Under the pieces are notes generated by a model that worked only from the letters and a program-made list of their open reading frames with translations, was not told the DNA's origin and did not search any database. A stretch of 64,000 nt of DNA from Myxococcota bacterium (lineage in GTDB: Bacteria > Myxococcota_A > UBA9160 > SMWR01): the NCBI GenBank assembly GCA_022447545.1, contig JAKVBI010000022.1, positions 30,903-94,902 on the forward strand, in the 5' to 3' direction. The first letter of the stretch is position 1; each line of letters opens with the position of its first letter. Made by a program: the position numbers and the translations under genes. Shown here in pieces: positions 19,767 to 50,062 of this stretch.

Positions 19767-21191
19767 GTGAGCTTTCGTCCTCGTCGGAACTCGAGGAATG
19801 GCCCGGGGCGAATTCTTCGGGGCATGTGCTTCTGCCTGGCTGCGACATTCTGGGTGGGTGTGGGGAGTTGGACTGCGTGTCGACCTTCCGCACCCCCCCG
19901 CCCGGACATCATATTGATCTCCCTCGATACGCTGCGGCGCGATGCAGTCGGTGCTCGAACTTCGGACGGTCGGCCGGTGACTCCAAATCTGGACGCGCTG
20001 GCTACCCGCAGTGTTGAATTCACCCGTGCCTACGCACCTGTGCCTTTTACCCTGACGTCCCACATGACACTCTTTACCGGCTTGAGACCGGCGGTTCACG
20101 GGATGGAGGGGCGAGGGGATCGTCTGAACGCGAAGGCGACGACGCTACCTCAGTTCCTCGAGCGAGCGGGTTACGCAACTCTTGGCGTTTCCACCAACGC
20201 GTGGATGAAGGGCGAGTATGGGTTCGATCGCGGATTCGACCACTACGGAGAAATTCCGCCGGGCGATACGTTTGCCGACCGTGCCATCGATCGCGCACTC
20301 GAGTGGGTGGACGAGAGGCCTCCGGACTCCCCGTTGTTTCTTTTTCTGCATCTGCTCGATGCCCACTCGGATTGGCGGAACCTTCCGTACGATTCGCCCG
20401 ATGAGTACCGCGAGGGCCTGGCCGTTGCCGAGACCACCTTTTGCAGTGACGAGGGGGTGTGTGCCACCCGATTCTTGATCGATTCGGATCGCTCCGACAG
20501 GGAGTTCTCGCAGCGAGAGATGGAGATTCTCCACGAGTTGTACCTACGGGGTGTGGCCTACCTCGACGCTGAACTCGGTCGTTTGTTCGCCGCTCTGGAG
20601 CAGCGAGGGATCTTCGAGCAGGCACTGGTGATCGTGACTTCCGATCACGGGGAGGCGTTTCGAGAACATGGCCGGTTTCTCCACGGACAACCCTACGAGG
20701 AGACCCTTGCCATCCCTCTCCTGATCAAGTTGCCCGATGCGGAAGGGGTGAAACCCCGGAGAGTGTCGGCCCTGGTGTCGAACGAGGATTTGCTGCCCAC
20801 GGTGCTCGAATATCTCGAAGTGACGATCCCTGATGACCTCCAGGGCCGGAGCATGGTTCCTCTCTTGCGGGGGGAAGATGGCGCGCGTGACGTGGTGGTG
20901 GGGGGGGATGCCGTCCATCGCCGTCGTGCCATCGCGGACGATCGGTATCGCCTGGTCGTCGGGTTGGAAGATTCCCGGGTTGAATTGTTCGACCTGAAGC
21001 GGGACCCCCAGGGAGGGGCAGCATCGCGTGTGGAACGGCCGGAGAGGGTGAGGGCACTTCGGTCTCGGCTCGACGAACAAGTTCTCAGAGACACGGAACT
21101 CGCCCGCGAGTACGCGCCGATCCGAGATGGTGAAAGCGTTCTCGACGGTGACGACGAGCGTTGGCTTCGAAGCCTGGGGTACCTGGACTGA
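19767..21191 (+). CDS. Alkaline-phosphatase-superfamily ('sulfatase-like') lipoprotein, Thr-type
   Basis: Lipobox-like WTAC; LDTLRRD, FTLTSHMTLFTG and TSDHGE; C-terminal LRSLGYL. GTG 19767 follows the upstream stop. Confidence 0.85.
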   Translation: MSFRPRRNSRNGPGRILRGMCFCLAATFWVGVGSWTACRPSAPPRPDIILISLDTLRRDAVGARTSDGRPVTPNLDALATRSVEFTRAYAPVPFTLTSHMTLFTGLRPAVHGMEGRGDRLNAKATTLPQFLERAGYATLGVSTNAWMKGEYGFDRGFDHYGEIPPGDTFADRAIDRALEWVDERPPDSPLFLFLHLLDAHSDWRNLPYDSPDEYREGLAVAETTFCSDEGVCATRFLIDSDRSDREFSQREMEILHELYLRGVAYLDAELGRLFAALEQRGIFEQALVIVTSDHGEAFREHGRFLHGQPYEETLAIPLLIKLPDAEGVKPRRVSALVSNEDLLPTVLEYLEVTIPDDLQGRSMVPLLRGEDGARDVVVGGDAVHRRRAIADDRYRLVVGLEDSRVELFDLKRDPQGGAASRVERPERVRALRSRLDEQVLRDTELAREYAPIRDGESVLDGDDERWLRSLGYLD

Positions 21192-21218
21192 GGCGAGTCA
21201 TGCGGGGGTCCAGGGCGG

Positions 21219-22538
21219 GTGGTACGCTCGATCCAGCGTCGTGATGGTTCGGCGCGGCAAGCAACTGGGATGGTTGGTCCTTCACCTCGCTTTCGCCTTT
21301 ACACCACGCCCCGCAGCTATTGGACGCTCGTGCGGGAGAGCGCGCTATCGGGGTTCTCGGTAGGAGACGCCCTTCCTCGGCTGGAAGATGCCGTGGCACG
21401 GCGTGTGGGACTCCCCCACGCCGTGGCGACCGCCCGTGCGAGAACGGGTCTTTTTCTGGCCGTTCGCCAACTCGTCGAGCCTGGACGAGAAGTGGTCTTG
21501 TCGCCCTACACGATTCACGAAGTTGTGAACATGGTGATCTGTGCCGGGGGGGTGCCCGTGTTCGCAGACATCGACCGTGCGACCTGCAATCTAGATCCTG
21601 CGGCAGCCCAGGCGGCGATCACAGAGTCCACGGGAGCGGTGCTGGCAACGCATCTTCACGGTCTTGCCATGGACCTGGAACCCATGGCGAGATGGTGTGC
21701 TGCGCGCGGTATCGCCCTCATCGAGGACGCTGCTCAAGCGTTTGGAGCTCGAGTGGGTGGACGATCCGTAGGAAGTTTCGGCGATGCCGGGGTGTTCAGT
21801 TTCGGGATGTACAAGAATCTCACGAGCTTTCTCGGAGGGATGTTGGTGACGCCTCACCAGGAGGCCGCGGATGGCTGGCGCCGTGCGAGGTCCTCGTACC
21901 CTGCGACACCATTCGGAGAAATTCTGGGGGAGATGGGCCGTGCGGCGAGTACCGACCTGGCCACCTGGCCACCGCTCTTCCGTCCTCTGGTGTTCCCCCT
22001 GTTTCGCTTCGGGTACCTGCGCGGGATTGGCTGGCTCAACAGTCGTGTGACGGTCGAAAGCAATCCCTTGGCGCGAGAAGGAGAACCCCGGGAGTACATG
22101 GTGCAGATGCGTTCTGCCCAGGCGAAGGTGGCCCTCGATCGGATGGAGGGTGTCGATGAGGATGTAGCCGTTCGCATCGAACACGCGCGTCGGTATCAAG
22201 AGGGGCTCGGGGATCTGGATGCGCTCTTGTTGCCTCCGTGGCGGGAGGATGGATCTCACACGTACAGCTACTTCCCCGTTCAGTTCGAAGACCGCGAAGC
22301 GCTGATCCGTCACATGATGCGTTCGGGTTGTGATGTTGCTGCTCAGCACCTGAGAAATTGTGCCGACCTGCCGTGTTTCGAGGCCTACGCCCGGGATTGT
22401 CCCCAGGCCAGGCTGACGGCGGCTTCCACCATTCTGCTGCCCACCTATCCGCGGTACGGGGTCGAGGACGTTGAACGCAACGTTCGCGCGATCCGTTGCT
22501 TCTTCGGTAGGAATCCGGGTGGGGCGGTGTTTTCGTGA
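21219..22538 (+). CDS. DegT/DnrJ/EryC1/StrS PLP-dependent sugar aminotransferase
   Basis: IEDAAQAFG and SFGMYKNL (PLP lysine). Start 21219 or ATG 21270. Confidence 0.88.
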   Translation: MVRSIQRRDGSARQATGMVGPSPRFRLYTTPRSYWTLVRESALSGFSVGDALPRLEDAVARRVGLPHAVATARARTGLFLAVRQLVEPGREVVLSPYTIHEVVNMVICAGGVPVFADIDRATCNLDPAAAQAAITESTGAVLATHLHGLAMDLEPMARWCAARGIALIEDAAQAFGARVGGRSVGSFGDAGVFSFGMYKNLTSFLGGMLVTPHQEAADGWRRARSSYPATPFGEILGEMGRAASTDLATWPPLFRPLVFPLFRFGYLRGIGWLNSRVTVESNPLAREGEPREYMVQMRSAQAKVALDRMEGVDEDVAVRIEHARRYQEGLGDLDALLLPPWREDGSHTYSYFPVQFEDREALIRHMMRSGCDVAAQHLRNCADLPCFEAYARDCPQARLTAASTILLPTYPRYGVEDVERNVRAIRCFFGRNPGGAVFS

Positions 22539-24208
22539 CGGTCGCCGTCATTGGATCGGGTCCGTCGGGCGTGGCCGTGGCTAGTGCGTTGCTCGAAGGA
22601 GGGGTCGAAGTCGAGATGCTCGACTTTGGACACGTCATCGATCCCGAGGCGGAGAGTCTGGCCCAGGCGTTGAGGGAGGAGTCGGCGGGCCCGGAAGACC
22701 GGAGGCGCTTGGAGTCCGTGGGGGCTCGGAGGGACTTCAAGGCCTCGTTGCTTCACTGGCTCGACGTCCTGCGGGGGAAGGCACCCCTGCTCGATGTCAC
22801 CGAGAAACTGCGGCTGGGGTCAGGTTTTGCGTTCGAGGATGTCGGGTGGGGGGTCCCGGCCCGCGCGGGTGGGGCGCCCCTGGCGAGATCCCTGGCGCGC
22901 GGGGGGTTGTCGAACGTCTGGGGAGCGGCCTGTTATCCCTTGGCGAAGGGTGAGTTCACAAACTGGCCCCTGGCCGAAGTCGATCTATCGCCCCATTACA
23001 CGGAGGCCACGCGCATCCTGTCTCTGAGTCAAATCGAGGACGGGCTTAGCAGCGTCTACCCCCTCTACGGCAAAGCCTCGGGCAGTCTGCCTCTCAACGA
23101 AGCGGCCCGGGGCCTTGCCAATCACTGGGCGTCTCGGGGGGATCGCCTGGCGGCACTGGGTGTCCACGCGGGTAGAGCGCGTCTCGCCGTGCGGAGCGAA
23201 GACAACGAAACCGGTGTCGGTTGTCGCTCGTGCGGGCTTTGCCTTTCGGGTTGTCCCTACGACTCGATCTACCGAGCAGATTGGACATTGGAACGGTTGG
23301 AGGAGCACGCTTCGTTTCGCTATCAGGGCGGCCTGTGGGTCCAGCGTTTCGTCGAGGACTCATCGGGGGTGCGCGTGGAGGCGCTTGCTGTCGAAGGGCG
23401 GGAGCGGGTGGAAAAAACCTATCGCGCGGTTTTTCTGGCCGCTGGAACCCTCTCGAGCCTCCGGATTGCGGCACAGTCCCTGGGGTATCTGGATCGACCG
23501 GTGCGCCTGTTCGACAACGATCTGTATCTGGTTCCTCTTTGGTGTAGAGCGGAAACCGCGGTGTCGAGTGCACCCCCCCGTTTCAGTCTCAACGAGTTGG
23601 CGCTGCGGATCGAGGTGGAGGGGGAGCCCCTCCACGTCCAGTTGTACGCCATGAGTTCCCAGGTGGTTGAGCGCTTTCGGCCTCTGCTGTCGATTCTTCC
23701 CAAGGCGGTGCAGGGATGGATCGATGGACAGATGGGACGTCTGATGTTGGGATTCGTCTTTCTGCCGGGCCGGAGTTCAGCACGGATCGAGGCCAGGGTC
23801 GTGGGGGACGACCCCGTCGCCGAAGTGAGGTTGAGTCAGCAGCGCAACGCCGAGGGGCGCAAACGAGTGGGGGAATTGATGCGTTTCCTGCGCCGTCACC
23901 GGGAGGATCTGGGCCTGGTGCCTGTGTGGACCCCTTTTCGTTCGACACCAGCGGGTCACAGCGGAGGGCACCTGGCGGGAGGACTCCCCATGACCGCGAG
24001 CCCCGGCGTGCTGGAAACGGATTCGAATGGCCAGTTGCAGGGTGCGGAGGCCGTGTTCGCTGTGGACTCAGCGGTGTTGCCCGATCTGCCCGCCCAGAAT
24101 TCGACCTACACCATCATGGCCAACGCCCATCGGATCGGTGTTGCATACGCGGCCGGTCGAGGATTGCGACCGAGTGATTCGCCAGGGTCAGAACCACTCC
24201 CGGAGTAG
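22535..24208 (+). CDS. GMC-type FAD oxidoreductase with Cys cluster
   Basis: VIGSGPSG, RGGLSNVWG, CRSCGLCLSGCP, GHLAGG and AVDSAVLP; GTGA overlap with the DegT stop; no signal peptide. Confidence 0.82.
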   Translation: MTVAVIGSGPSGVAVASALLEGGVEVEMLDFGHVIDPEAESLAQALREESAGPEDRRRLESVGARRDFKASLLHWLDVLRGKAPLLDVTEKLRLGSGFAFEDVGWGVPARAGGAPLARSLARGGLSNVWGAACYPLAKGEFTNWPLAEVDLSPHYTEATRILSLSQIEDGLSSVYPLYGKASGSLPLNEAARGLANHWASRGDRLAALGVHAGRARLAVRSEDNETGVGCRSCGLCLSGCPYDSIYRADWTLERLEEHASFRYQGGLWVQRFVEDSSGVRVEALAVEGRERVEKTYRAVFLAAGTLSSLRIAAQSLGYLDRPVRLFDNDLYLVPLWCRAETAVSSAPPRFSLNELALRIEVEGEPLHVQLYAMSSQVVERFRPLLSILPKAVQGWIDGQMGRLMLGFVFLPGRSSARIEARVVGDDPVAEVRLSQQRNAEGRKRVGELMRFLRRHREDLGLVPVWTPFRSTPAGHSGGHLAGGLPMTASPGVLETDSNGQLQGAEAVFAVDSAVLPDLPAQNSTYTIMANAHRIGVAYAAGRGLRPSDSPGSEPLPE

Positions 24209-25420
24209 GGGGAAGGTGGGGTCCATGCGGTGGGCTAGTGGCACCGCATACCAGAAAAGGCCACTCGCGAGGTGGAGCGCGAAGGCGCCCCCGCACACGC
24301 GGACGCGAATTCGCGTTCCCGGGGCCGACACGTCGGGGAGCGCGGCCTTGTCCATCAGGAAGCGCAATGAGCAGACGAACAACAGGAACAATGCGATCTG
24401 CGCCGACCAGAGGAAATTCCCATCGAGGTTCCTTGGGCCCGTTTCTGCCAGCAGGTACGCGTAGAGGGAACCCACCACGAAGGTCGACCAGGCGAGAATC
24501 AGCGAGCGGCTGCGTCGCGTTTCGCTCCACCAGGCTCCCAGAACCAGGGCCGGAAAAAGAATCGACATTGCGTACTTGATCGCGAGGTGGTCAGGGGACA
24601 GGGTGCCCATGACCGCTAGCGGCGCCCATTCGATGGAACTGGGGGTGTGGCTCGGATGGGCGGCCTGACCTGCTGAGTACGTGTACAGGTACTGCCACGC
24701 GAGCACGGCACAAGCCGGAAAAGCAATTCCCATCCCCAATGCCCGCAGGTCGGGAAGCGGTTTCGAGCGTCGAGTTAGGAAGACCGCGGCGCAAAGCGCG
24801 GGGAGCAGGGCGATGGTGTAACTGGGCTTCGCGAGGGTGGCGAGGATGACGATGGCCGCCGTCCCCATGATTCGTCCCAGGCCGACGTGTGCGCCCGGTT
24901 CGAGGGATCGGCAAGCCGCGATGAAGACCCATAGGGCGAGGGGTTTGAGGAGGGCCATGCTGGGGCTGTGGTGGGCGCTGATGGCGACGTACCCGTGATA
25001 GAGGTTGCGGTCGCCGGCGGTGAAGAGGTTCACGGGCATGACCAGCATGAGGCTCAAGGTCAGGCCTGCGATCACGAGGGGGGCTCGAAGACCGTGGGCC
25101 CTGGTCCGGCTTTGTTCGAGGAGCGAATAGAGGAGGGTGGCCAGGAGCAGTTGTGCGAAAAGGGAAACTCCGAAGGCGGCATTCAGGCTCGACAGCCCGG
25201 GAACCGCGAGGTGAAGGAGCGCGGTCAGACCGGCGAAGAGAAAATTGGGAAGAGGGATCCGGGTGGTTCCGTGGCGAGCCCAGTGTTCGGCCTCTCTCGC
25301 GTGAACCGTATAGTCCGATTCGCCGCCCAGGGCCCACAACATGCCGCTTGCTAGAAGCGCTGTGCTGATCAGCAGGAGGGTCAGGCCGCCGGGAAGCGGC
25401 TGCGAGGGGTGCGAACTCAC
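24188..25420 (-). CDS. Polytopic membrane protein, putative GT-C glycosyltransferase
   Basis: SDYTVH in the first loop, HHSPSMALLKP, LAKPSY and about 10 TMs; GTG 25420 overlaps the upstream stop (GTGA). Confidence 0.55.
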   Translation of the reverse strand: MSSHPSQPLPGGLTLLLISTALLASGMLWALGGESDYTVHAREAEHWARHGTTRIPLPNFLFAGLTALLHLAVPGLSSLNAAFGVSLFAQLLLATLLYSLLEQSRTRAHGLRAPLVIAGLTLSLMLVMPVNLFTAGDRNLYHGYVAISAHHSPSMALLKPLALWVFIAACRSLEPGAHVGLGRIMGTAAIVILATLAKPSYTIALLPALCAAVFLTRRSKPLPDLRALGMGIAFPACAVLAWQYLYTYSAGQAAHPSHTPSSIEWAPLAVMGTLSPDHLAIKYAMSILFPALVLGAWWSETRRSRSLILAWSTFVVGSLYAYLLAETGPRNLDGNFLWSAQIALFLLFVCSLRFLMDKAALPDVSAPGTRIRVRVCGGAFALHLASGLFWYAVPLAHRMDPTFPLLREWF

Positions 25421-27555
25421 GGCGCCGCCGTCAGGCGGGCCAAGCTCGCCTGTGCTTGTGCGTGGTGGGGGGCTTTCTCTATGACCTGGGTCCAGACACG
25501 TCGTGCTGCCTCGACGTCGCCCATCAAGTGGAAGCAGGCGCCCAGGTCGAACCCATGGTCCGGGGGGCGCGTCTCGGGTCGGGAGGACTCTCGATGACGG
25601 GCGATCCGGCTCTGGCAATTGGCGGCTCGTTTGCGGTTGAGCACCTCATGGGCAGCTCTTACGTCCGGTCGTTCCAGGGTCTTCGGCTCCACCCGGGAAA
25701 GAGCGTCGCCGGCGCCCACCGGGTCGCCCAGGACATCCCGCAGCAAGCCCAGGTGTAGCCAGTAGTGGGGGTCGTCGGGGCGTAGGTCGACCGCTTGTTC
25801 GTAGGCGTCCCGTGCGGCTCTAAGGGACCCCATGGTGATCAGCAGTTTTGCCATGCTATCGACGCCGCTGGCGTCTGGAACCTGTGGGAAGACTCCATCG
25901 AGCCAATTGGCCGGTGTGTCGAAGCGCGGTGGCGTGGCATGCGGGCGAATGGGGTCACTCCAGTCGATCGCCAACTCCTGGAGCTTGGCCTGGGTGTTCG
26001 GTGTCAGTCGCACGAAGGCCGCGTAGGCTTCATCGAAGTAGACAGCGATCCATTCCGGGTGTTGCTCGAGGGCTGCGATGACATCCATCCGGTAGAGGTG
26101 CCGTAACACCGCCGTGTTCAGACCCTGTTCGTCGAGGATTTGGAGATAGCCCTCGGGCGTCTCCAACTGGGTCAGTAGGTTGCCGAGCAGGTCCTGACCA
26201 TAGACCTCGAGTCGCCCGTCCAGGAAGACGCTCCGTTCGCCGCCGCGATAGAGCAGATACCCCCCATCGCTCAAGTCTCCCATGACGGGCCGGGGGAGCC
26301 CCTGCTCCTCGATAAAGGCCCAGGCGCGGATCGGAAAGCGCTCCTCCACCACCCCAAAGCCGAAGGCATGGGGCATGCGTTGGGAGCGCCAGAAGTGGTT
26401 GGTGGCCGCGGAGAGGCAAAGCGCCAGCGAGAGCGTCAAGGTGATGGCTCTGGCCATGCCTGGCAAGCCGTCGTAGAGCCACCGGGGTGCCGGAGAGAGT
26501 TCCCGCGGTGCGGTGAGCCATTCTCTCAGGTTCGCGGTGAGCACGACGCCGGCCACGATTCCGAACAGGGATGCGTTACGAGTCGATAGGAGAGAGAGGA
26601 GGAGAAAACCCGTCCACCAGGCCAGTCGGGTGAGGACGAACCTCTGGGGGCAGAGCAGGAAGGAGGCCGACGACACCCAGAGCACGCCCAGATAGGCCAT
26701 GAACTGGAAGTTCAGGCGACCGTCGAGCAGCGGGCTGCGAAGTTCGTCGATCATCAGGCTCATGTCGCTCCCCGCCTGAATCTGTTGCCAGAGGGTGACG
26801 GGGTAGAGGGCGCCATCCAGGAAGTAGGGGGTGGCCAGACCGCACAGAGAGAGCAGGACGGCCGTTGCCGTGAGTGCAGTGAGGCGCCGACCCCGTACGG
26901 GGTGAAGGTCTCCCGTTAACACATTCCACCTGTGTGCGAGGGTTCCCTGGGTGGCTTCGCAGATCACCGAGGTCCAGAGCAGAACGGGTCCGAGGATGGA
27001 AAGCGTATGGGTGTTGGCCCAGAGGATCTGGATGAGTGGGAGAGAGAGCAGCCAACCGGTTTGACCTCGTCGCTTGTACTGGTCGAGGCACAACAGCGTC
27101 GCCGAAAGCCACAAGAAGCTCATGACCTCGGGACGTAGACGCAACCGCGGATAGATGAGGATGAGGGCACAGAGGAGACCCAACGGACGAACCCAAGTTG
27201 CGCCTGCCCTCATGGTCTTCGCCAGTACGAGAAATGCGATCACGATCAGGGCGGTCTTTGCCAGGATCAGGCCGTTGAGTCCAGAGACGGCGGCGATCCC
27301 GTGGATCAGCAGGTAATAGAGCCAGCGTAGTTCGATCCAGGGTCGGTCGGGGAACGCGAAGCTGAAGGGATCGAGACGGGGTAACCCGTTTTCGAGGATC
27401 CAGCCGCCGGTGGCGTACTGCCACCAGAAGTCCACGGCAATGATTTTGTGCACCGACAGGGCGATGACAGCCGAGAAGAGGGCTGCCAGGGTGAGGCGGT
27501 CTAACCAGCGCCACCTCAGCGAGTCCGGTTTCTGACCCGGATCTGATTGGTACAT
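25417..27555 (-). CDS. GT-C-like membrane protein with C-terminal TPRs
   Basis: AVDFWWQYATG..DPFSF, LRLRPE, LWANTH and VFLDGRLEVY; TPR helices near the C-terminus. Confidence 0.65.
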   Translation of the reverse strand: MYQSDPGQKPDSLRWRWLDRLTLAALFSAVIALSVHKIIAVDFWWQYATGGWILENGLPRLDPFSFAFPDRPWIELRWLYYLLIHGIAAVSGLNGLILAKTALIVIAFLVLAKTMRAGATWVRPLGLLCALILIYPRLRLRPEVMSFLWLSATLLCLDQYKRRGQTGWLLSLPLIQILWANTHTLSILGPVLLWTSVICEATQGTLAHRWNVLTGDLHPVRGRRLTALTATAVLLSLCGLATPYFLDGALYPVTLWQQIQAGSDMSLMIDELRSPLLDGRLNFQFMAYLGVLWVSSASFLLCPQRFVLTRLAWWTGFLLLSLLSTRNASLFGIVAGVVLTANLREWLTAPRELSPAPRWLYDGLPGMARAITLTLSLALCLSAATNHFWRSQRMPHAFGFGVVEERFPIRAWAFIEEQGLPRPVMGDLSDGGYLLYRGGERSVFLDGRLEVYGQDLLGNLLTQLETPEGYLQILDEQGLNTAVLRHLYRMDVIAALEQHPEWIAVYFDEAYAAFVRLTPNTQAKLQELAIDWSDPIRPHATPPRFDTPANWLDGVFPQVPDASGVDSMAKLLITMGSLRAARDAYEQAVDLRPDDPHYWLHLGLLRDVLGDPVGAGDALSRVEPKTLERPDVRAAHEVLNRKRAANCQSRIARHRESSRPETRPPDHGFDLGACFHLMGDVEAARRVWTQVIEKAPHHAQAQASLARLTAAP

Positions 27556-36937: not shown

Positions 36938-36943
36938 ACGGGG

Positions 36944-40086: not shown

Positions 40087-41390
40087 GGCTCGGACCCCAC
40101 GGGGGCTGGTGGGTGGTAGGTGACCCTCCAAATGTGCTGTGAACCATCGTCGAGCACCAGCAGGGATCCATCGGCAAGCAACGTGAGGCCCGTGGGGCGA
40201 CCCCAGACGGGGCCGGGGCCTCCGCCGAAGCCATCGATGAAGGTCTCGAATCCACCTTCGGGGCGACCCGATTCATTCATGGGAATGCGTAGGACCGAGT
40301 AGCCACTCCGCTTGGATCGGTTGTAGGAGCCGTGCAGGGCCACCAGGAGGTCGCCGTCGTAGCCGGAGGGAAACATATCGCCCTGGTAGAAGGCTGCGCC
40401 CAGAGGCGTGCCGTGGGGGGGCAGGAGTACGTCGGGAACGAGGCTTCGGGCGATGGCTTCCGGGTCCAGCTCGGACAGGCGGGGCTCGGGGTTGGGGCCC
40501 AGGTAGGCCCAGGGCCACCCGTAAAAGCCGCCGGATCGGACCGCCGTTGCGAAGTCCGGCGGGAGGTCGTCGCCCAGACCGTCGCGTTCCGTCACGGCGG
40601 CCCACAGGTCACCTGTGTCGGGTTGGATCGCCAGTGACGAGGGGTTGCGGAGGCCCGAGGCGTAGACCCGCGAATTCGAGCCGTCAGGGTTCATAGCGAG
40701 GATCAGGGCACGGTTCGGCGGCTCACGACCCTGTCCGTTGTAGTTCGATTGGGAGCCGATACCCACGAATAGGGTGGCTCCATTGTCTGAGAAGGCGAGG
40801 TCCCGGGTCCAGTGCCCCCCGCCGGGCAGGGAAGCAATGACCTCGGGCTCACTCGAAATTCCCAGGTCTCCGGGCTCGAAGCGCGCTCTCACCACGGCAT
40901 TCTCGAAACCCACATACAGCCAGCCATCGGAATGGGCGAGTCCGTAGGGTCGGCTGGTGCCTTCGAGTAGATCGGCCCGTCGGTCCGGACGACCGTCGCC
41001 ATCGGTGTCTCGCAGAATCGAGACCTTCAGGCCGAAGGATTCAGCCACGATGACGTCGCCGTTGGCGAGAGCCAGGGCCCGACGAGGCCCGGATAGCCCG
41101 CTCGCCCAGGCTTGGACCGAAAAACCCGGGGGTGCGTAGAGGACAGGAATTCCGCCCGGGCGGCGTACCTGGATGTTGCGAGTCGCCGAGACCGTGGCAA
41201 AGGGTTCGGGGAGGGTTTGAGGATCGATGAAGCGCCGTTCTGGCGCTCTGGCGCGTGTCTCCACCGGTTGATTGGAGAACGGCAGGGGGCGGCTCTCGAA
41301 GGGGGGATCTGCGGGCGCAGTACAGGCCACCACCCCCCAGGACAGGGATAGCTGTACCGCGCACTTGCGTGCCAATACCCAACGGGTCAT
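40083..41390 (-). CDS. PQQ-dependent glucose/sorbosone dehydrogenase family beta-propeller, probable lipoprotein
   Basis: VVAC lipobox-like; GGHWTRDL, SGLRNP, ERDGLGDDLPPD, GFYGWP and GRPTGL. Start 41390-41423 uncertain. Confidence 0.85.
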   Translation of the reverse strand: MTRWVLARKCAVQLSLSWGVVACTAPADPPFESRPLPFSNQPVETRARAPERRFIDPQTLPEPFATVSATRNIQVRRPGGIPVLYAPPGFSVQAWASGLSGPRRALALANGDVIVAESFGLKVSILRDTDGDGRPDRRADLLEGTSRPYGLAHSDGWLYVGFENAVVRARFEPGDLGISSEPEVIASLPGGGHWTRDLAFSDNGATLFVGIGSQSNYNGQGREPPNRALILAMNPDGSNSRVYASGLRNPSSLAIQPDTGDLWAAVTERDGLGDDLPPDFATAVRSGGFYGWPWAYLGPNPEPRLSELDPEAIARSLVPDVLLPPHGTPLGAAFYQGDMFPSGYDGDLLVALHGSYNRSKRSGYSVLRIPMNESGRPEGGFETFIDGFGGGPGPVWGRPTGLTLLADGSLLVLDDGSQHIWRVTYHPPAPVGSEP

Positions 41391-41395
41391 ACACT
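41390..41395 (+). promoter_or_regulatory. -10 element TACACT, 8 nt before ATG 41404
   Basis: TACACT-cgaccgcc-ATG; no SD. Confidence 0.35.
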
Positions 41396-41403
41396 CGACC
41401 GCC

Positions 41404-43365: not shown

Positions 43366-44902
43366 TCTCGTAGATGGCCATGGAGGCCTGCACGTTGTTG
43401 GGGGCGATGGTGTAGGGCGCGGACGAGCGTCGAAAACGCTCCTTCAGCCCCCAGGTGCGGATCCAATCCGCGTCGACGTCCCCGGGAAAGGCGACCAGAT
43501 AATCCGGCCCGAATTCAGCGATTCTGGCGGGTCCATCGCGCAACAACGCGTGGCTGTTGAGACCCGCAAGGTCGAGGGTCTCTCGTCGTCCCACGAAACG
43601 CACGGCCCCGGCATCGAAGGTGGCCACGCGATCCGATGGGTTGGTGTGTCCGCGTAGCCATTCGCCGAGGCGGACCTGCACCTCGAGCATGTTCTGATTG
43701 TTCCAGGCGTAAGTGGCTGCCAGAGAAGCCGCCCGTGAGGGGATGGCCAGTACGATCGGCGCTCCGAGTAGGAGACAGAGGGCCAGGCGTTGGGTGCGCC
43801 GGCCGCCACGAGGGTCCAGCAGCGGGGCCGCACCCAGGCCCAACCAAACGGCCAACAGCGGGACCACCGGGTGCAGGTATCGGGACCAGTAGAAGTAGCG
43901 TGGATCGCCGAGTGAGTGGGTGCCGAGGATGCCGGCGATCAGGCCCAACGGCGCCAGTAGGGTCAGGAGACTCGCGTAACGGAGGCTCGCAGGTTCAGAG
44001 TCGACGCCGAGTCGAATCAACTGCCGAGCCCCGAGGATCATCAGCAGTGCGCCTGCGCCAAAACCGACGAGGCTCAGACTGCCGAGCGCCGAGAATGCGA
44101 AACGCGCATTCCAGACCAGGGCCTCCGCCATCGGCAGCCCGGTCGCCCCGAGGCCCTTGACGTAGAAGGTGGTGGGTAAGGGGTGTCCCGTGACCGCCCA
44201 GCAATACCCCAGCCACAGCGTTCCTGCGCCCAACAGCGGACCGAAGGCCACGGCGCAACGAAGCCATGGCTCACGTTCCTCCCTCAATTGGGAGGCGATC
44301 AGGGGCAGGGCAAGCAGAACCACGATGCCGCACTCGGGGCGTGCCAGGGGAGGGAGGGCCAGGGTCGCCGCCGCCCAGAGCGGCCGCCCCCGCGCCAGCA
44401 GCAGGATCGGGATCAGTAGGCAGGTTGCGGCCAGAACCACCTCCATGCCGGAAACGGAGTCGAACACGAAAGTCGGATTGGTGACGACTGCAGCCCCGGC
44501 CAGTGCGGCAGCCGGGAAGCACCGGGTCAAGCGGTCGACGAGCTGCGCCGTCATCCAACCACAGGCGCCGGCTAGAAGGACCCCCAGCAGTTTTACGGCG
44601 ACGGCGAGTGCTGGATCGGTGCCGAGTCCGAGCCAGAACATGGGGGCGAGCAAGAACACCCACAGGGGACTCGTGAAGCCCGCCTCAGGCTGGGCGGTGT
44701 TGTACGACAGGCCCTGAAAATTCGCGAGACTCTCGGCATACACCAGGTGGATCCAAGCGTCGTCGAGGGGAAACCCGACGAGGGCAGCGTCCGTCCCAGG
44801 GCTGCGGTCGAGGGTGAAGAACAACGCCCCGGCGAATTGCAGTGTCAACAGACTGCAGGTGAGCAGGGGCCAGCGGCTGCGATGGACGGTGGTTTGACTC
44901 AC
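43334..44902 (-). CDS. AftB-like GT-C glycosyltransferase
   Basis: LDDAWIHLVYAE..GFTSPLW, SGME, ARPE, TTFYVK and DLAGLN; ATGA overlap with the upstream TMTC-like gene. Confidence 0.7.
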   Translation of the reverse strand: MSQTTVHRSRWPLLTCSLLTLQFAGALFFTLDRSPGTDAALVGFPLDDAWIHLVYAESLANFQGLSYNTAQPEAGFTSPLWVFLLAPMFWLGLGTDPALAVAVKLLGVLLAGACGWMTAQLVDRLTRCFPAAALAGAAVVTNPTFVFDSVSGMEVVLAATCLLIPILLLARGRPLWAAATLALPPLARPECGIVVLLALPLIASQLREEREPWLRCAVAFGPLLGAGTLWLGYCWAVTGHPLPTTFYVKGLGATGLPMAEALVWNARFAFSALGSLSLVGFGAGALLMILGARQLIRLGVDSEPASLRYASLLTLLAPLGLIAGILGTHSLGDPRYFYWSRYLHPVVPLLAVWLGLGAAPLLDPRGGRRTQRLALCLLLGAPIVLAIPSRAASLAATYAWNNQNMLEVQVRLGEWLRGHTNPSDRVATFDAGAVRFVGRRETLDLAGLNSHALLRDGPARIAEFGPDYLVAFPGDVDADWIRTWGLKERFRRSSAPYTIAPNNVQASMAIYEISQVPAPTAP

Positions 44903-46845
44903 TGCTCAACCGCCTCGGGTGGCCGAGGCGACCTGCGCTGGGCGTCTCGTTCCAGTCGAATTCTTACCAGCTGGGCGCGTGCCGCGGCGTGGCTGGGGTC
45001 CCGGGCCAGGGCCGCCTCCAGGCTCGCCATGGCCGCCTCGAGGTTTCCGCGCTTCCACTGGGCGAGGCCCAGGTTCGCGTGCGCTCTGGCCTGCTCCGGG
45101 GTCAGGCGTACCGCGCGTTGGAAGTGCTCGATTGCCGCGTCGAGGTCTCCTTGGTCAGCGAGGTGGGCTCCCACGGCCTGGTGCGCTTCCGACAGTTCGG
45201 CGGCGTCGGTAGTTTGTATCGTGGCGGCCTCCAGGGCACCGGCGAGATGTTCGTAGGCCTCGTCGACGCGTCCCGACCGTTGGAGCAGGTCCGCGAGTCT
45301 CCCATGGGCCCCGGCATGGTGGGGGGCGAATTGGAGCGCCTGGCGGTAGTGATCCTCAGCCGCTGCGTCGTTGCCCAGGGCGAGGTCCACGTTTCCCAGG
45401 CCGGTATGGCTGTCGGCGTGGTCGGCCGCCATGGCGAGGGCGTTCTGGTAGTGACGCTCGGCACCCTCCAGGTCGTCGAGAGCGAGGCTGACCAGGCCGA
45501 GATTGGCGTGTGTATTGACCTCGGCTTCTGCGGCCAGGGACCTTTCGTAGTGGTGGCGTGCTCGTTCGAAGGCGCCCCGTCGGAGGTATACGGTTCCCAG
45601 GTTGTTGTGGGCGTGACGCGAGCCCGGGTTGATGGCGAGGGTGTTCAGGTAGAGCCGTTCCCGATCCTCGTAGAGGCTCGCCTGATGACGAGCTGTCGAG
45701 ATCTCGGCGGCGATCAGGAGGGCGGGGATCAGCCAGACGGCCGGGCCCGCTCGTTCGGCCAGGCGGGAAAAAACGGCGGCGGTCCCAGCGCATAACGCAG
45801 GCAGCGCCAGGTAGAGATACATGTCGGCCACGGGCGCGAAATTCAGGTGACCGAAATCCAAGAAGCCGAGGACGGGCGCCACCGCCAGTACGAACCAGAG
45901 TAGAACCGCGAAGGGGCTTCGCCCCCAGGCGTGGCGCCCCCACCAGGTGACACCGAGCAGGGCCGCGAATCCGCCGGCTGGCGCCACGGCCGCGACCCAG
46001 CTTCCCGCGGGTTCCCAGGCGGGATACAGAAACGTCAGGGGGTGGGGCCAGAAGGCGGTGACGAGATAGAACCAGAGTGCACGGCCCGCCATCGACGCGC
46101 GTCCGAGCAGGCTGGGGTCGGCGAGAGAGTCGGGGCCGGACATGGGGTTGTTGCTCTCGTAGAGCAGGCCGTTGGCTCCAAACAATCCGGCCAACAGGAT
46201 CATTGGAAGAACAGGCAGCAGGTCGTCGCCGCGCAGTCGACCGGTTTTCCACCAACGGATCAGGGGGAGTGCGAAGGGCACCACGACCACGGAGAGCTTG
46301 CTGAGGAGCCCGAAGAGAAATGCCGACAGCGCCACCGCGTACGCGGCGAGGTTCCGCGGTTCCCCTGCCCGAAAGCGGAGCCACGCCAGGATGCTGATCA
46401 GGCCGAAACTGGCGGCGAGGAGCGTCTTGCGTTGGGAGATCCAGGCAACGGCCTGGACGTTGGCGGGGTGAAGGGCGAACAGCAGCGCCGCCGCAAAGGC
46501 GCCGCGTACCTCCAGGCGCCACAGCAGGCGCCAGACGAGGAGTGAGTTCAGCACGTGGAGCGCGATGTTGGTCCTGCGGTAGCCGCCGGGGTCATCGCCC
46601 CAGACGCGCCACTCGAGCCAGAAACTGGTGTGGGTCAACGCGTAGTAGTCGTGAAACTCCGATCCGAGCCAGATTCGAAGCCAGCCATCGGGTGCCGCGA
46701 TCACGGAATTTCGGGCCACGTAGTCGTAGTCGTCGATCAGGAACTCGCCCGGTAGCGAGGGCAGGTAGGTGATGCAGGTCAGCGCGGCGAGGACGAATCC
46801 GCCCAGCAGCGCCCGCACGGACACGGCCCCCGTTCCCAGCATCAT
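44899..46845 (-). CDS. TMTC-like (DD-motif GT-C + TPR) putative protein O-glycosyltransferase, paralogue C
   Basis: FLIDD, NIALHVLNS, HPANVQAVAWISQR, LSK and ADMYLY, then about 7 TPRs. Confidence 0.8.
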   Translation of the reverse strand: MMLGTGAVSVRALLGGFVLAALTCITYLPSLPGEFLIDDYDYVARNSVIAAPDGWLRIWLGSEFHDYYALTHTSFWLEWRVWGDDPGGYRRTNIALHVLNSLLVWRLLWRLEVRGAFAAALLFALHPANVQAVAWISQRKTLLAASFGLISILAWLRFRAGEPRNLAAYAVALSAFLFGLLSKLSVVVVPFALPLIRWWKTGRLRGDDLLPVLPMILLAGLFGANGLLYESNNPMSGPDSLADPSLLGRASMAGRALWFYLVTAFWPHPLTFLYPAWEPAGSWVAAVAPAGGFAALLGVTWWGRHAWGRSPFAVLLWFVLAVAPVLGFLDFGHLNFAPVADMYLYLALPALCAGTAAVFSRLAERAGPAVWLIPALLIAAEISTARHQASLYEDRERLYLNTLAINPGSRHAHNNLGTVYLRRGAFERARHHYERSLAAEAEVNTHANLGLVSLALDDLEGAERHYQNALAMAADHADSHTGLGNVDLALGNDAAAEDHYRQALQFAPHHAGAHGRLADLLQRSGRVDEAYEHLAGALEAATIQTTDAAELSEAHQAVGAHLADQGDLDAAIEHFQRAVRLTPEQARAHANLGLAQWKRGNLEAAMASLEAALARDPSHAAARAQLVRIRLERDAQRRSPRPPEAVEQ

Positions 46846-46851
46846 GGTGGG

Positions 46852-46857: not shown

Positions 46858-46895
46858 TCCAAGGACGGGCCTTTGCCCGCTGGCGGGCAGCCCCC

Positions 46896-48638
46896 TCAGA
46901 ATTCGCGTCCCTGGTGGCTTGCGCGCACGCCACACCAGCGCACCTGAATGCCCTCCAGGCCGGTGCTTCGCCACACTCGCAGGTGCCCGGGGTCAATGGG
47001 TTCGAGGCGTACCTGCGGTTCTGGCCCGGGCGAGGTGATCTCCAATACGACGGGTCCCGTAGGTGCTTCGGACGTCACGTCCAGGACACGGCTACGGTCT
47101 TGCGCGGTGTCCCATTGGAGCGTGGGCTGGGAGTCGCCGTGGAACCGGTAGCCATTGTCCGGAAGGCGGAGTTCGAGCAGTTGGCCGGGGCGGGAGTCTT
47201 CGCGACGCAACTTGAGGCAGTCTAGGGTGGCGCTGCCCGGCGCTCGCAACCAACCCGTCGGGTCATGCAGCTCCCGGTAGTGGCTGGACACGTAGCCGCT
47301 GCGCAACCCCGCGGCGGCCCGGGCCGCGGGCAGGGTCACGATGCTGAGGAGGGCTGCCACGGGCACTGCGAGGATCGCGAACCGGGCCCGGAGACTGCGC
47401 GGTGCACGCAGGTGTGCGGCGCCCACGCCCGCCAGGGGCACCAGCAGGGCGAGCAGGGGGAGCCCCATTCGCGCGTTGCCGATGGAGACGAGGGGCCCCA
47501 CGAAGCTGAGGGCGACCAGTCCCAACAGCAGCGTCTGGTCGCTCCGCTGGACCACCGACGACGTGACGCCGAGCGCGGCCAACGTGAGTAGCCCCAGCAG
47601 TCCGAGGCCCAAAGCCGTTGCCACGGCGTAGATCGCGGGTGTCGACAACGCGGGGTAGTAGACGTGGAGAAGGTGTCGGATCAGGAAGTCGTCGGGAGCC
47701 CAGACCTGTCGTGCGCGCAACCACGATCGCTGCAGGAAACGCGCGGGGTCGGCGGCAATGGCCTCCAGGGCCAGGTCGCGCCCGGCGCGGCTGGGGTGCA
47801 CGCCATCGGATTGGGCTCGTTGAGCGATGGCGTTGCGGACGGCCACTTTCGAGGGGAAGTCGGCGTTGAGCTTGAGCAGGTTGTAGCCACTGGCTGTGCT
47901 CAGCACGATGGGTTGACCTTCGGCTCGCAACAAAACCCATTCCCACGGTGCGAGGGTTGCGATTGCCATGGCCAGGGCCAGCACGGCGGGCACCCAGCGG
48001 CGTGTGGCCCCCCCCATCAGCAGCCAACCTGGCACCCAGAGCAGGGGAACCAGTCCAGCGGCGCGGGTGAGACCCGTCAGCCCCAGTGTGGCCCCGCAGG
48101 CGATGGCGGCCAGAATTTGCGTCCGGGTCCCGGATGCATTGCGGGTTGCCAGTGCCAGGGCGATGGACAGGAACAGCAGCAAGATGTAGAGGGTTTCCGA
48201 CCACAGAAGGTGGGCGTAGGCGACAAAGCTTGGATAGAAGGCATGAATGGCTGCGGCCGCGAGGGCGGAACGGCGGTCCGCCAGGCGACGGGTGACCCAG
48301 AAGATGACGGGGGTGGTCAGGACCGAAATCCAGAGCACCGCCCATCGAGCCACGGCCTCGCCGGTCCCGAGGGCGGCCATGACGGTGCCGATCACGGCGG
48401 GGAACAGAGGCGGCCAGGTTCCATCGGAGTAGAGGCGCTGCAGGTCCAGGGGGTCGAGGGCCATGCCGGCGAGGGTGGCCTGCTCGAGATGCGCGACGGC
48501 CTGGGCACGGTGGAAGTACGCCTTTTCGTCGAAGGCCGGGCGCAGCGGAGAGGCCCATTCCAGGGCCAGGGCGCGCACCAGCCAAGAGATCAGCATCAAG
48601 CCGAGCAGCAGGCCCATATCCCGCCGGGATCGGCTCAT
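46896..48638 (-). CDS. ArnT/PMT-like GT-C glycosyltransferase
   Basis: AFDEKAY, WPPLFP, LWSETLY, LTRAAG and LAPWE; ATG 48638 overlaps the upstream stop (ATGA). Confidence 0.72.
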   Translation of the reverse strand: MSRSRRDMGLLLGLMLISWLVRALALEWASPLRPAFDEKAYFHRAQAVAHLEQATLAGMALDPLDLQRLYSDGTWPPLFPAVIGTVMAALGTGEAVARWAVLWISVLTTPVIFWVTRRLADRRSALAAAAIHAFYPSFVAYAHLLWSETLYILLLFLSIALALATRNASGTRTQILAAIACGATLGLTGLTRAAGLVPLLWVPGWLLMGGATRRWVPAVLALAMAIATLAPWEWVLLRAEGQPIVLSTASGYNLLKLNADFPSKVAVRNAIAQRAQSDGVHPSRAGRDLALEAIAADPARFLQRSWLRARQVWAPDDFLIRHLLHVYYPALSTPAIYAVATALGLGLLGLLTLAALGVTSSVVQRSDQTLLLGLVALSFVGPLVSIGNARMGLPLLALLVPLAGVGAAHLRAPRSLRARFAILAVPVAALLSIVTLPAARAAAGLRSGYVSSHYRELHDPTGWLRAPGSATLDCLKLRREDSRPGQLLELRLPDNGYRFHGDSQPTLQWDTAQDRSRVLDVTSEAPTGPVVLEITSPGPEPQVRLEPIDPGHLRVWRSTGLEGIQVRWCGVRASHQGREF

Positions 48639-50062
48639 GGGGCCGTGCTCTCGAGATACCCCAGGGCACGGAGCGCATCGACGGCGTCGTCGGGAAGTTG
48701 CCGGCTCGGGATCGGCTCCGCTCCCTCCCGCCAGCTCGATTCCCAGGCGAGCCACTCGTCTACCCGACGCTGGAAATCGGTCACCCGTTCGGGGGATAGT
48801 TTTGACAGGTCATGTCCCTCGCCAGGGTCCCGGGCGAGGTCGTAGAGTTCCGGCCCGCCCTTGCGGCGCCGATAGTAGGTTTCGCTTCCCCGGCGAACCA
48901 TGTGCTCGTCCCCGTAGGCGCTCGCAAAGGCTTCCCGCGGTGGTTGGGTGTCGTTGCCGGTCAGCAGATCGAGACCCGGGAGTCCTTCCGGAATCCGGGC
49001 CCCGGCCAGTCGGGCAATCGTGGGAAAGAGGTCGATGGAGCGCACCACCCGCGGATCTCGCACACCCTTGGGCGCTGCATGCCCGCTCAGGATCATGGGA
49101 ATGCGCAGGGTCGCATCGTCGAGGCGTCCTCCGCCGTGTCCGACGCGTCCGTGCTCGAAGAAACGCTCTCCGTGATCGGCGGTCACCACGATCAGGGTTT
49201 CATGGGCCCGATCGGTTCGCTCGAGGACCGACGGGAGTCGGCTCAGGGCGGCATCCTGTTGGGCGAGTTCGGCGTCGTAGAGGTCCACGTATCGCTTCGC
49301 CAGTTCGGGTTCGACGCGGCCCGACTCGAGGGCCTGCATCACCCAGCGCCGGACTTTGTGGACGTACCGGGGGTAGTCATCGAGCGGGACAATTGGCTCA
49401 ACGCGATTGAAGGCCCGATAGAAGCGGTAGTCGGGGTCGAAGGTCACGTGGGCGTCGCGGGACATCAGTAGAAAAAAGAACGGCTGGTCGGGCGGGACGG
49501 TCTGGACCCAATTCTCGAACTCATCGACCATGGTCGATGCGTTGAGACTGGGTGAGGCGATGGCGTTGTCGAAGCCCTGGGTCATGCCGAAGTGCTCACT
49601 CACGTGCACGTTGTTGATACGGGCGGCAGTGGCGTAGCCCGCCTCTTGAAGCGTCTCGGCCAGGGTCACGACGCCGTCGGGAAGCACCCGCTTGGGGAGC
49701 AGTTGTCCCCGCATCACCTCCAGCGGGTCGTAGAAATCCGTCATGCCGTGGGCGTTGGGGGGCAGTCCCGTCAGGAGGCTCGCCGTGGCGGGCTTGGTCC
49801 AGTTCGCAGCGCTCACGGCGTTTTCGAAGAACAGGCCCTGACGAGCCAGATCGTCCAGGAAGGGTGTGGTCTCGCGTGGGTAACCGGCGGCCCCCATGTG
49901 CGAGTACCGGAAGGTGCAGAGCACCACCAACAGAATGTCCGGCGGGCGTTCGTGTGCGGGGTCGGGGGTCGGCGGTGGGTCGAGTTCCTGGCCACAACCC
50001 GTCAGCAGCACCAGGATCGCCAGCGCCGGGGCCACGATGATGCGCCAGCGTCGCCCTCTCAC
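48635..50062 (-). CDS. Alkaline-phosphatase-superfamily ('sulfatase-like') lipoprotein, Thr-type
   Basis: Lipobox LTGC; WTKPATASLLTG and TADHGE; C-terminal LRALGYL; GTGA overlap with the LtaS-like gene. Confidence 0.85.
   Translation of the reverse strand: MRGRRWRIIVAPALAILVLLTGCGQELDPPPTPDPAHERPPDILLVVLCTFRYSHMGAAGYPRETTPFLDDLARQGLFFENAVSAANWTKPATASLLTGLPPNAHGMTDFYDPLEVMRGQLLPKRVLPDGVVTLAETLQEAGYATAARINNVHVSEHFGMTQGFDNAIASPSLNASTMVDEFENWVQTVPPDQPFFFLLMSRDAHVTFDPDYRFYRAFNRVEPIVPLDDYPRYVHKVRRWVMQALESGRVEPELAKRYVDLYDAELAQQDAALSRLPSVLERTDRAHETLIVVTADHGERFFEHGRVGHGGGRLDDATLRIPMILSGHAAPKGVRDPRVVRSIDLFPTIARLAGARIPEGLPGLDLLTGNDTQPPREAFASAYGDEHMVRRGSETYYRRRKGGPELYDLARDPGEGHDLSKLSPERVTDFQRRVDEWLAWESSWREGAEPIPSRQLPDDAVDALRALGYLESTAP

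Follow-up and report, generated by a model that had tools for sequence, protein, structure and literature searches.

A 64,000-nucleotide stretch of contig JAKVBI010000022.1 from a bacterium of the Myxococcota (hereafter the window) encodes four sulfatase-fold proteins of 475–510 amino acids, AP1 to AP4, in which a threonine occupies the position that carries formylglycine in sulfatases. It is reasonably probable that these proteins are membrane-tethered, metal-dependent phosphoesterases or phosphotransferases with a threonine nucleophile, which would work with GT-C glycosyltransferases and TPR proteins on lipid-linked or envelope glycoconjugates that bear phosphate.

The four genes

Genes in the window were called from open reading frames (ORFs), GC content by codon position, Pfam matches and hydropathy. 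AP1 extends from 19740 (alternative GTG at 19767) to 21191 on the forward strand, and its translation matches Pfam Sulfatase (PF00884) with an E value of 1.5e-39 and Phosphodiest (PF01663) with one of 4.6e-17. AP2 lies on the same strand, from 35405 (alternative ATG at 35465) to 36937 (Sulfatase 4.3e-46). The other two are putative lipoproteins read from the reverse strand: AP3 at 36944–38425 (ATG at 38425–38423, alternative ATG at 38365; Sulfatase 7.8e-47) and AP4, with a GTG start, at 48635–50062 (Sulfatase 3.3e-43). All four thus match PF00884 beyond chance (136–160 bits, E from 1.5e-39 to 7.8e-47). A sequence-only reading of this DNA had pointed to these ORFs, and they exist and translate as it described; the coordinates that it gave (19767, 35465, 36944 and 48635) hold as gene boundaries and not as positions of the motifs. 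An 844-amino-acid ORF at 36944–39478 is spurious upstream of about 38425, since a PMT_2 gene at 38422–40131 fills that stretch. AP2 and AP4 are identical (100%) to the database proteins P0001 and P0121, respectively. Pairwise identity among the four is only 28–33%, and they are therefore old paralogues.

A threonine at the nucleophile position

The motifs T-L-T-S-H, T-V-P-A-H, T-T-Q-S-I and T-K-P-A-T on which the sequence-only reading was built, and the DHGE motif that it saw in each protein, are all present. T-L-T-S-H of AP1 (20049–20063, forward strand) belongs to a subfamily with the consensus F-T-L-[PTSA]-S-H; T-V-P-A-H of AP2 is found at 35738–35752 (forward strand), T-T-Q-S-I of AP3 at 38132–38146 (reverse strand) and T-K-P-A-T of AP4 at 49784–49798 (reverse strand), where the nearest 100 homologues keep W in 97, T in 98, K in 92 and P in 99. 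The DHGE motifs lie at 20643–20654 (AP1), 36317–36328 (AP2), 37532–37543 (AP3) and 49166–49177 (AP4). In AP4 the first-strand motif reads V-V-L-C-T-F-R (49907–49927, reverse strand), and its cysteine (codon 49918–49916) replaces the metal-ligand Asp of the D-T-L-R seen in AP1–AP3, a change that had previously been overlooked.

In an alignment of 59 sequences, comprising the four paralogues and 55 homologues (AP2 numbering), T112 is invariant, as are T121, G122, H128, N161, H220, D305, H306, G307, E308 and H318, while D72 is nearly so. HMMER alignments, both pairwise and by profile, place the threonine opposite the formylglycine residue of the solved sulfatases 7oz8, SpAS1 (4upi) and SpAS2 (4upl), and the S-L-F-T-G...H-G segment that follows it matches these sulfatases residue for residue. 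The segment D305-H306-G-E ... H318 of AP2 (36317–36361, forward strand), identified from invariant columns and the alignments to 7oz8, 4upi and 4upl, includes D305-H306 as the predicted metal-ligand pair. In an AlphaFold model of AP2 (predicted local distance difference test score, pLDDT, 89.3; predicted TM-score 0.87), D72 follows the first core strand (65–71), T112 is the first residue of helix 112–121, H220 follows strand 210–216 and D305-H306 follow strand 298–303, a layout that would be expected of an alkaline-phosphatase-superfamily metal site. The invariant column, the HMMER alignment and the helix start all agree with the nucleophile position that the sequence-only reading had given to the threonine. 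Its expectation that a structure model would find this residue at the metal site is borne out in part, in that T112 opens a helix after a core strand; the metal site itself was placed from the alignment and the secondary structure.

The loss of the C/S-x-P-x-R context, also claimed earlier, is upheld by the alignment: it is absent from all four proteins, none of which has an arginine at motif position 5. In addition, all four carry a histidine (H318 in AP2) where 7oz8, 4upi and 4upl carry a lysine after DHG, and the GKWH segment of sulfatases reads GASAN, VSTNA, VVSNH and RINNV in AP1 to AP4, lacking the Lys/His pair. In sulfatases the Lys after D-[NH]-G binds sulfate. Because C/S-x-P-x-R is absent and the Lys after DHG has become His, the sequences make formylglycine sulfatase chemistry very unlikely for AP1–AP4. 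Formylglycine cannot arise from threonine, and serine in place of formylglycine traps arylsulfatases as the sulfated enzyme, a sulfated Ser or Thr intermediate being a dead end. No FGE or anSME family was among the Pfam matches of the ORFs scanned in the window, which is 64 kb of a longer contig.

Threonine serves for phosphoryl transfer in LtaS, EptA/MCR, OpgB and NPP enzymes. The combination that characterizes EptA/MCR, LtaS and OpgB, a Thr nucleophile with [DE] and Asp-His ligands, is found here as conserved D72 (Cys in AP4), T112, D305 and H306. In the two-zinc site of NPP the second metal has Asp/His/His ligands; candidate residues for such a second site here, [DE]-x-H220 and H318, are also conserved. 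A Thr-nucleophile site for phosphoryl transfer would be the best reading of these residues in AP1–AP4; the Thr-based sulfo-transferase that had been offered beside it gained no support.

A sulfatase/phosphonate monoester hydrolase scaffold

A Foldseek search of the PDB with the AP2 model gave S1 sulfatases, sulfamidase, choline sulfatase or phosphonate monoester hydrolase (PMH) as all 50 matches listed, with E values of about 1e-26 to 1e-23 (best 8e-27) and TM-scores of 0.57–0.65. A profile of the 59 members found SpAS1 first (9e-58), followed by SpAS2, BT1918_S1_46 and BcPMH. SGSH_C, the C-terminal subdomain of sulfatases, is matched more weakly than Sulfatase by all four proteins, of which AP1 and AP3 alone clear the gathering threshold; Foldseek, Sulfatase and SGSH_C together give the two-domain fold of the S1 sulfatases and PMHs that is typical of type I sulfatases. 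Phosphodiest is above its gathering score of 23 bits in all four (63.1, 52.8, 32.9 and 37.7 bits), though far below the Sulfatase scores over the matching region. In an NCBIfam scan of AP1–AP4 no equivalog came near its cut-off; the PehA model NF045661 scored 71–107 bits against a cut-off of 900, and the nucleophile is Thr in place of the formylglycine of the PMH/PehA group. The hydropathy scan showed no membrane domain in AP1–AP4, and with it none of the N-terminal multi-helix domain of EptA and LtaS. Since the Foldseek and profile matches are to sulfatases and PMHs, and the EptA/MCR/LtaS models reach only 15–49 bits, AP1–AP4 appear to be Thr enzymes built on a sulfatase/PMH scaffold rather than stray members of the known Thr-type transferases.

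Compared with SpAS1 (4upi), SpAS2 (4upl), BcPMH (2w8s), RlPMH (2vqr), choline sulfatase (6fny) and BT1918_S1_46 (7oz8), the four proteins share the best profile matches (E 9e-58 to about 1e-39), a fold at TM-scores of about 0.6–0.65, the two-domain build with an SGSH_C-type subdomain, the Asp-His pair of DHG, the HG after the TG turn and the LYDL..DP.E segment. They differ from that group in the threonine that replaces formylglycine, in having neither C/S-x-P-x-R nor the GKWH-type Lys/His pair, in the His that replaces Lys after DHG, in an invariant Asn in the GKWH segment, and in carrying a lipoprotein-like signal and an additional L-x-x-L-G-Y at the end of the domain, past the region aligned with SpAS1. 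With EptA/MCR-1, LtaS, OpgB (MdoB) and BcsG they have in common the Thr nucleophile, a first strand with [DE]-[TS]-x-R, DHGE followed by His, a segment resembling H-G-P-x-Y (EVHGPY in AP2), an extracytoplasmic location at the membrane and weak NCBIfam matches, and the residues compared have established roles in EptA/MCR-1 and LtaS. Very low scores against the curated models, the absence of a transmembrane domain and the sulfatase C-terminal subdomain set AP1–AP4 apart from these transferases. Many relatives of AP1 and AP2, however, have four or five N-terminal transmembrane helices, which is the general layout of EptA and LtaS; OpgB occurs in soluble and membrane forms of the phosphoglycerol transferase. 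As for NPP, the Phosphodiest match spans the first strand and the nucleophile segment in AP1, AP2 and AP3 and begins after the first strand in AP4, and we take the segment T-x-P-x-H-x-S-x-x-T-G ... HG to be the NPP pattern (T-F-P-N-H). Unlike NPP, however, the four score far higher with the Sulfatase profile (136–160 bits), and the 50 fold matches listed are sulfatases or PMHs. A literature search on the NPP motif string returned nothing useful.

Conserved active-site types among relatives

The four paralogues appear from their relatives to represent separately conserved types of active site and not stages of decay. The AP2 type, Asp with T-x-P-x-H, is the commonest among the relatives sampled, and this motif or a close variant is found in 110 of the 120 nearest homologues of AP2. 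The motif of AP1 is a variant of it in which Pro has become Thr; its subfamily keeps the Thr in 81 of 81 representatives and the His in 80 of 81, together with a conserved H-x-x-D-A-H-S-D segment. In the AP3 type Asp is combined with T-x-[PQ]-x and a hydrophobic residue ([LFMI]). An orthologue from contig L001, 51% identical to AP3, reads TTQAL at this point, and T-x-P-x-[LFM] predominates among remoter relatives. The AP4 type, the most unusual of the four, combines Cys with T-K-P-x and a residue other than His, and its first-strand Cys is kept in 97 of the 100 nearest homologues. Among the collected sequences that could be read by motif pattern, Asp occurs with the motif His in 244 and Cys with a non-His residue in 85, and Cys with His in none; this pairing is a signature of clades and not independent covariation, but it argues that the Cys form is a working variant and not a product of decay.

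The family ranges over Myxococcota, Planctomycetota, Cyanobacteria, Acidobacteriota, Gemmatimonadota, Chloroflexota and haloarchaea. At E values up to 1e-30, 16,186 clusters at 50% identity can be reached from AP1, a number among which formylglycine sulfatases will be included. Many AP1- and AP2-type relatives of about 570–670 amino acids have three to five predicted N-terminal transmembrane helices, and the N-terminal regions of two such membrane-bound relatives matched no Pfam family. Other relatives are tandem AP-AP proteins of about 900–1550 amino acids, or carry C-terminal TPR repeats after the AP domain (about 650–770 amino acids); proteins of these two kinds include P0243, P0277, P0280, P0326, P0343, P0357, P0360, P0380 and P0384 and occur at loci L044, L054, L074, L075 and L078. 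In L001, orthologues of AP2 and AP3 are grouped with two more Sulfatase-family genes and a membrane protein that resembles the TPR_c protein. In L084, lipoproteins of the AP4 type and of a T-I-P-S-H type lie within a cluster of GT2 and GT4 genes. A radical SAM/SPASM gene of L084 (8685–9842, reverse strand), divergent beside the AP4-type homologue, was considered as an anSME and rejected, its matches to other radical SAM/SPASM maturases being weak and far below their cut-offs; anaerobic sulfatase maturase was not among the 25 NCBIfam matches listed for its product.

Putative lipoprotein signals and the C-terminal motif

Each of the four proteins has a Cys after an N-terminus like a signal peptide, as the sequence-only reading had noted, but AP4 alone has a canonical lipobox (LLTGC). 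That of AP3 (FLWAC) is acceptable, and those of AP1 (SWTAC, with WTAC at 19869–19880) and AP2 (LGLGC) are weak, judged by matching the pattern [LVI][ASTVI][GAS]C at the end of the signal peptide. In homologues, 48–65% have the strict pattern and 80–93% have [GAS]C near the N-terminus.

A six-frame translation of the window confirmed the common C-terminal L-R-x-L-G-Y-L, which is found 1–5 codons ahead of each stop (AP1 21165–21185, forward strand; AP2 36908–36928, LRELGYL, forward strand; AP3 36950–36970, reverse strand; AP4 48653–48673, reverse strand) and nowhere else in the window. The L-x-x-L-G-Y ending is kept in 118 of the 120 nearest homologues of AP2. We considered that the motif could be a free docking peptide for adjacent TPR domains, and this was ruled out. 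In AP-TPR fusions and tandem AP-AP proteins L-x-x-L-G-Y is internal and closes each AP domain (in nearly every such domain where the motif was found), and the AP2 model has a pLDDT of about 90 over residues 491–510, which include LRELGYL, so that the tail is packed in the model. Across related loci the LxxLGY tail and a separate TPR neighbour are negatively associated, because the TPR "neighbour" is often the identical protein. As it closes each AP domain in fusions and tandems, L-x-x-L-G-Y is a structural end-of-domain signature of the clade.

Association with GT-C glycosyltransferases

Three of the four genes, AP1, AP3 and AP4, abut genes for polytopic proteins of the PMT_2 (GT-C) family. 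PMT2_a (18170–19765, forward strand; PMT_2 2e-14) is directly upstream of AP1, whose in-frame GTG at 19767 is 1 nucleotide past the PMT2_a stop. PMT2_b (38422–40131, reverse strand), recognized by its hydrophobic segments and a PMT_2 match of 1.5e-05 (25.7 bits, just under the cut-off of 26.1), has a stop that overlaps the start of AP3 (ATGA). PMT2_c (46896–48755, reverse strand) is directly downstream of AP4, with a PMT_2 match of 2.3e-05 (25.1 bits, again just under 26.1) and 32% identity to PMT2_a over 248 amino acids; its likely start is the ATG at 48638, a candidate that overlaps the AP4 stop (ATGA).

In a syntenic metagenome contig, L085, the orthologues of PMT2_a and AP1 are fused in a single 874-amino-acid ORF, P0242 (8001–10625). 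Its first 443 residues match Pfam PMT_2 and are 57% identical to PMT2_a over 446 amino acids (E 8e-166), and the remainder, toward the C-terminus, shares 56% identity with AP1 and has a TLSSH motif and a terminal LRSIGYL. At the junction the last membrane helix is followed by about 20 residues and then by PDIVLISLDTLRRD. At the equivalent point AP1 instead carries a signal peptide of its own, about 45 residues that include a Cys, and the window therefore holds a true split form and not a frameshift. The order of genes in L085 is MBOAT, unknown, GT2, methyltransferase, the PMT_2::AP fusion, DegT, GMC, unknown, TPR, unknown and TPR. This fusion is our strongest evidence for a physical partnership of the AP domain with a GT-C enzyme at the periplasmic face of the membrane.

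In the window the corresponding string is headed by a GT2 gene (16562–17797, forward strand) upstream of PMT2_a, whose positional counterpart in L085 carries GT2_TM_C, and continues through PMT_2 and AP1 to genes for a DegT aminotransferase (21219–22538) and a GMC-like oxidoreductase (22535–24208). We compared this arrangement with three-component systems of periplasmic glycosylation, namely GtrA/B/C, ArnC/ArnT and the pentofuranose systems (see PMC11127046). The window resembles systems in which a polyprenyl-phosphate-sugar synthase serves a periplasmic GT-C enzyme, in that GT2 is followed by PMT_2 with DegT and the L085 GT2 carries GT2_TM_C. To our knowledge, none of these systems has a subunit of the alkaline-phosphatase superfamily, either fused or separate. 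Purely by analogy, the GT2-GT-C-DegT string around AP1 is reminiscent of the ArnC/ArnT/ArnB logic of lipid A modification.

TPR proteins form part of the same neighbourhood. The string of genes that includes AP4 contains TPR_d (44899–46845, reverse strand), which is polytopic in its N-terminal half, ends in TPR repeats, and whose stop overlaps the start of the next membrane gene (GTGA). Further membrane-TPR proteins of this kind are encoded at 25417–27555 (reverse strand), 29023–31230 (reverse strand) and 31329–33257 (forward strand). The last two are divergent genes whose products are 47% identical over about 650 amino acids (E 1e-177); their polytopic halves, of about 450 amino acids, matched no NCBIfam family (one of them scanned), Pfam matches being confined to the TPR part.

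At the head of AP4 there is a fifth Sulfatase-domain gene in the interval, encoding a membrane protein (50059–52284, reverse strand; Pfam Sulfatase 3.8e-27), which the sequence-only reading had passed over. Its start is probably the METPLG at 52284, the ORF being open to 52653, and its TGA overlaps the GTG start of AP4 (GTGA). It is nearest to OpgB/LtaS, with a match to NCBIfam phosphoglycerol transferase I of 6.6e-15 that is far under the cut-off, and has a first-strand Glu (LLEGVTG) and a candidate Thr (QTNRG); since VDESRG stands in place of DHG, the His ligand is missing.

Proposed function and alternatives

The chemistry, metal, substrate and choice between hydrolysis and transfer that we infer for AP1–AP4 would be as follows. 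The ligands of a metal would be the Asp of the first strand (replaced by Cys in AP4), the nucleophilic Thr and the Asp-His pair within DHGE, and the Thr alkoxide would attack a phosphate ester or diester to give a covalent phospho-Thr intermediate. The invariant H220 and H318 (AP2), which stand where sulfatases use His and Lys for sulfate, may bind either a second metal or the oxygens of the phosphoryl group. Water, in a hydrolase, or an acceptor hydroxyl, in a transferase, would then resolve the phospho-Thr. The site of action would be the outer face of the inner membrane, alongside PMT_2-type GT-C glycosyltransferases and membrane TPR proteins, with phosphate-bearing lipid-linked or envelope glycoconjugates as substrates.

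More tentatively, it is possible that the Thr-type domain serves GT-C machines as a dedicated subunit for phosphoryl transfer (or as a pyrophosphatase), forming with the glycosyltransferase a two-enzyme periplasmic module, fused in some organisms and in others split between a GT-C protein and a lipoprotein, that installs, removes or recycles phosphate-linked groups on acceptors that are lipid-linked or part of the envelope, and that the AP4 type uses a Cys-ligated metal. We know of no GT-C system for which a phosphoryl-transfer partner has been described, and of no precedent for a Cys-ligated metal site in the alkaline-phosphatase superfamily.

Several observations weigh against a Thr-nucleophile phosphoryl-transfer enzyme that acts with GT-C and TPR proteins. 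The nearest characterized proteins by both sequence and fold are sulfatases and PMHs, not Thr-type transferases, and the EptA/MCR/LtaS models of NCBIfam give AP1–AP4 only 15–49 bits against cut-offs of 400–1250. The geometry of the metal site is drawn from alignment and secondary-structure position only, and AP4 lacks the Asp ligand of the first strand. AP2 has no adjacent PMT_2 gene, and GT-C- or TPR-type neighbours were found by iterated search at only about 32 of 82 related loci, so that the partnership recurs without holding everywhere; the idea of a family-wide PMT_2 neighbourhood was rejected, single-sequence phmmer having found one at no more than 1 of the 82. Finally, our literature searches, in which subscription journals lay mostly outside, found no enzymatic, metal or substrate data for any member of the clade, no characterized Thr-type enzyme of the clade and no system that joins GT-C with a sulfatase domain; the clade is apparently uncharacterized.

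These neighbourhood counts bear on another explanation, which we regard as unlikely: that the four are envelope-anchored phosphatases or phosphodiesterases for general scavenging of phosphorus, with the glycosyltransferases adjacent by accident. About 50 of the 82 loci have no GT-C or TPR partner, one AP4-type homologue lies among unrelated genes, and a family as broad as this one, from Myxococcota to haloarchaea, would fit a general role. Such a role is harder to reconcile with the PMT_2 fusion in a syntenic contig, with three of four genes abutting PMT_2 genes (AP3 and AP4 with start/stop overlaps), with AP-TPR fusions among relatives, and with the presence of four paralogues of about 30% identity in one envelope region and a similar set in L001; moreover, no phosphate-transport or phosphate-regulon families were seen among the window ORFs scanned.

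It is rather doubtful that the proteins are non-catalytic or barely catalytic subunits, as has been proposed for the alkaline-phosphatase-like domain of YejM/PbgA; in that case they would bind to phosphorylated lipids or glycans and act as regulators or scaffolds of the GT-C and TPR membrane proteins. YejM is among the weak NCBIfam matches, and the loss of the first Asp ligand in AP4 and of the motif His in AP3 and AP4 could be understood in this way, as could fusion or coupling to larger membrane machines; however, the nucleophilic Thr, the Asp-His pair and the two additional His show no variation among paralogues of about 30% identity and their homologues, and a Cys kept in 97 of 100 AP4-type sequences is a better fit to a working metal ligand than to decay. 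That AP1–AP4 are real sulfatases, using Thr or another residue directly on sulfated glycans, is highly improbable, for although sulfatases or PMHs provide all the top matches by sequence and by fold, SGSH_C is retained and the source annotations read sulfatase, formylglycine cannot form where there is no Cys or Ser at the nucleophile position and no Pro/Arg context, the sulfate-binding Lys has become His, a sulfated Ser or Thr would be a dead end, and neither the window ORFs scanned (FGE or anSME) nor the 25 matches listed for the L084 radical SAM protein (anSME) included a sulfatase maturase.

Other genes of the window

The window as a whole is an envelope-modification region, and the envelope-glycan setting assumed in the sequence-only reading is supported by Pfam, hydropathy and NCBIfam results for the scanned ORFs. 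Five genes match PMT_2, with PMT2_a and a gene at 2874–4781 attaining Pfam's gathering score and the remaining three slightly under it, and there are GT2 genes and methyltransferases besides. Genes of the MBOAT (membrane-bound O-acyltransferase) family are found at 13995–15389 (reverse strand) and at 62983–64000 (forward strand), the second running past the end of the window. Four polytopic ORFs with about 8–12 hydrophobic segments have no Pfam match (24188–25618, 34126–35601 and 43334–44902 on the reverse strand; 41272–43365 on the forward strand); that at 41272–43365 has a weak match to a GT-C arabinofuranosyltransferase model (3e-06, far under the cut-off). An exosortase (EpsH)-like membrane protein is encoded at 11635–12234 (reverse strand; Pfam 1.5e-08), a few kb from glycosyltransferase and AP genes. 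A 666-amino-acid ORF at 5822–7822 (reverse strand), flanked by a PMT_2-like gene and genes of unknown type, has multihaem cytochrome c signatures (paired CXXCH, c554, c7 and an MtrC/MtrF-like domain). At 54041–56956 (reverse strand), two 2OG-Fe(II) oxygenase genes (54041–54901 and 56042–56956) flank an LPG_synthase_TM gene (55013–56032).

Implications for annotation and biology

The prediction that automatic annotation would miscall such proteins proved correct: homologues are named "sulfatase", "arylsulfatase A-like enzyme" or "choline-sulfatase" in public sources, although NCBI names some of them more neutrally, as "sulfatase-like hydrolase/transferase". According to the SulfAtlas paper (PMC5066984, 2016), Thr is present in about half of the PF00884 seed, proteins of this kind cannot be regarded as sulfatases, and wrong annotations are propagated by the profile; the argument from the missing Cys or Ser and Pro/Arg context is made there as well. 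Since that paper had already stated the point, the claim of misannotation is less new than the sequence-only reading implied. EfAS, described as a "manganese-dependent arylsulfatase", was considered as a Thr enzyme and set aside, as it uses Cys61/formylglycine.

Proteins of this type that bear the label "sulfatase" or "arylsulfatase A-like" number in the thousands among environmental bacteria and haloarchaea. Should they prove to be enzymes of phosphoryl transfer, the numbers of sulfatases counted in Planctomycetota, Acidobacteriota, Myxococcota and Cyanobacteria would be inflated, and so would conclusions about the use of sulfated glycans that are drawn from those counts. The clade places a Thr nucleophile on a scaffold that otherwise carries formylglycine, and therefore would offer a natural test of how a joint switch of nucleophile, Lys to His and metal site relates to sulfate versus phosphate chemistry, and the AP4 type, with Cys for Asp, adds a further variant. 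The PMT_2 fusion suggests that GT-C glycosyltransferases have a partner activity so far unrecognized. Three features merit experimental study: the sulfatase/PMH scaffold with its Thr site, the subfamily with Cys for Asp, and the fusion to a GT-C enzyme.

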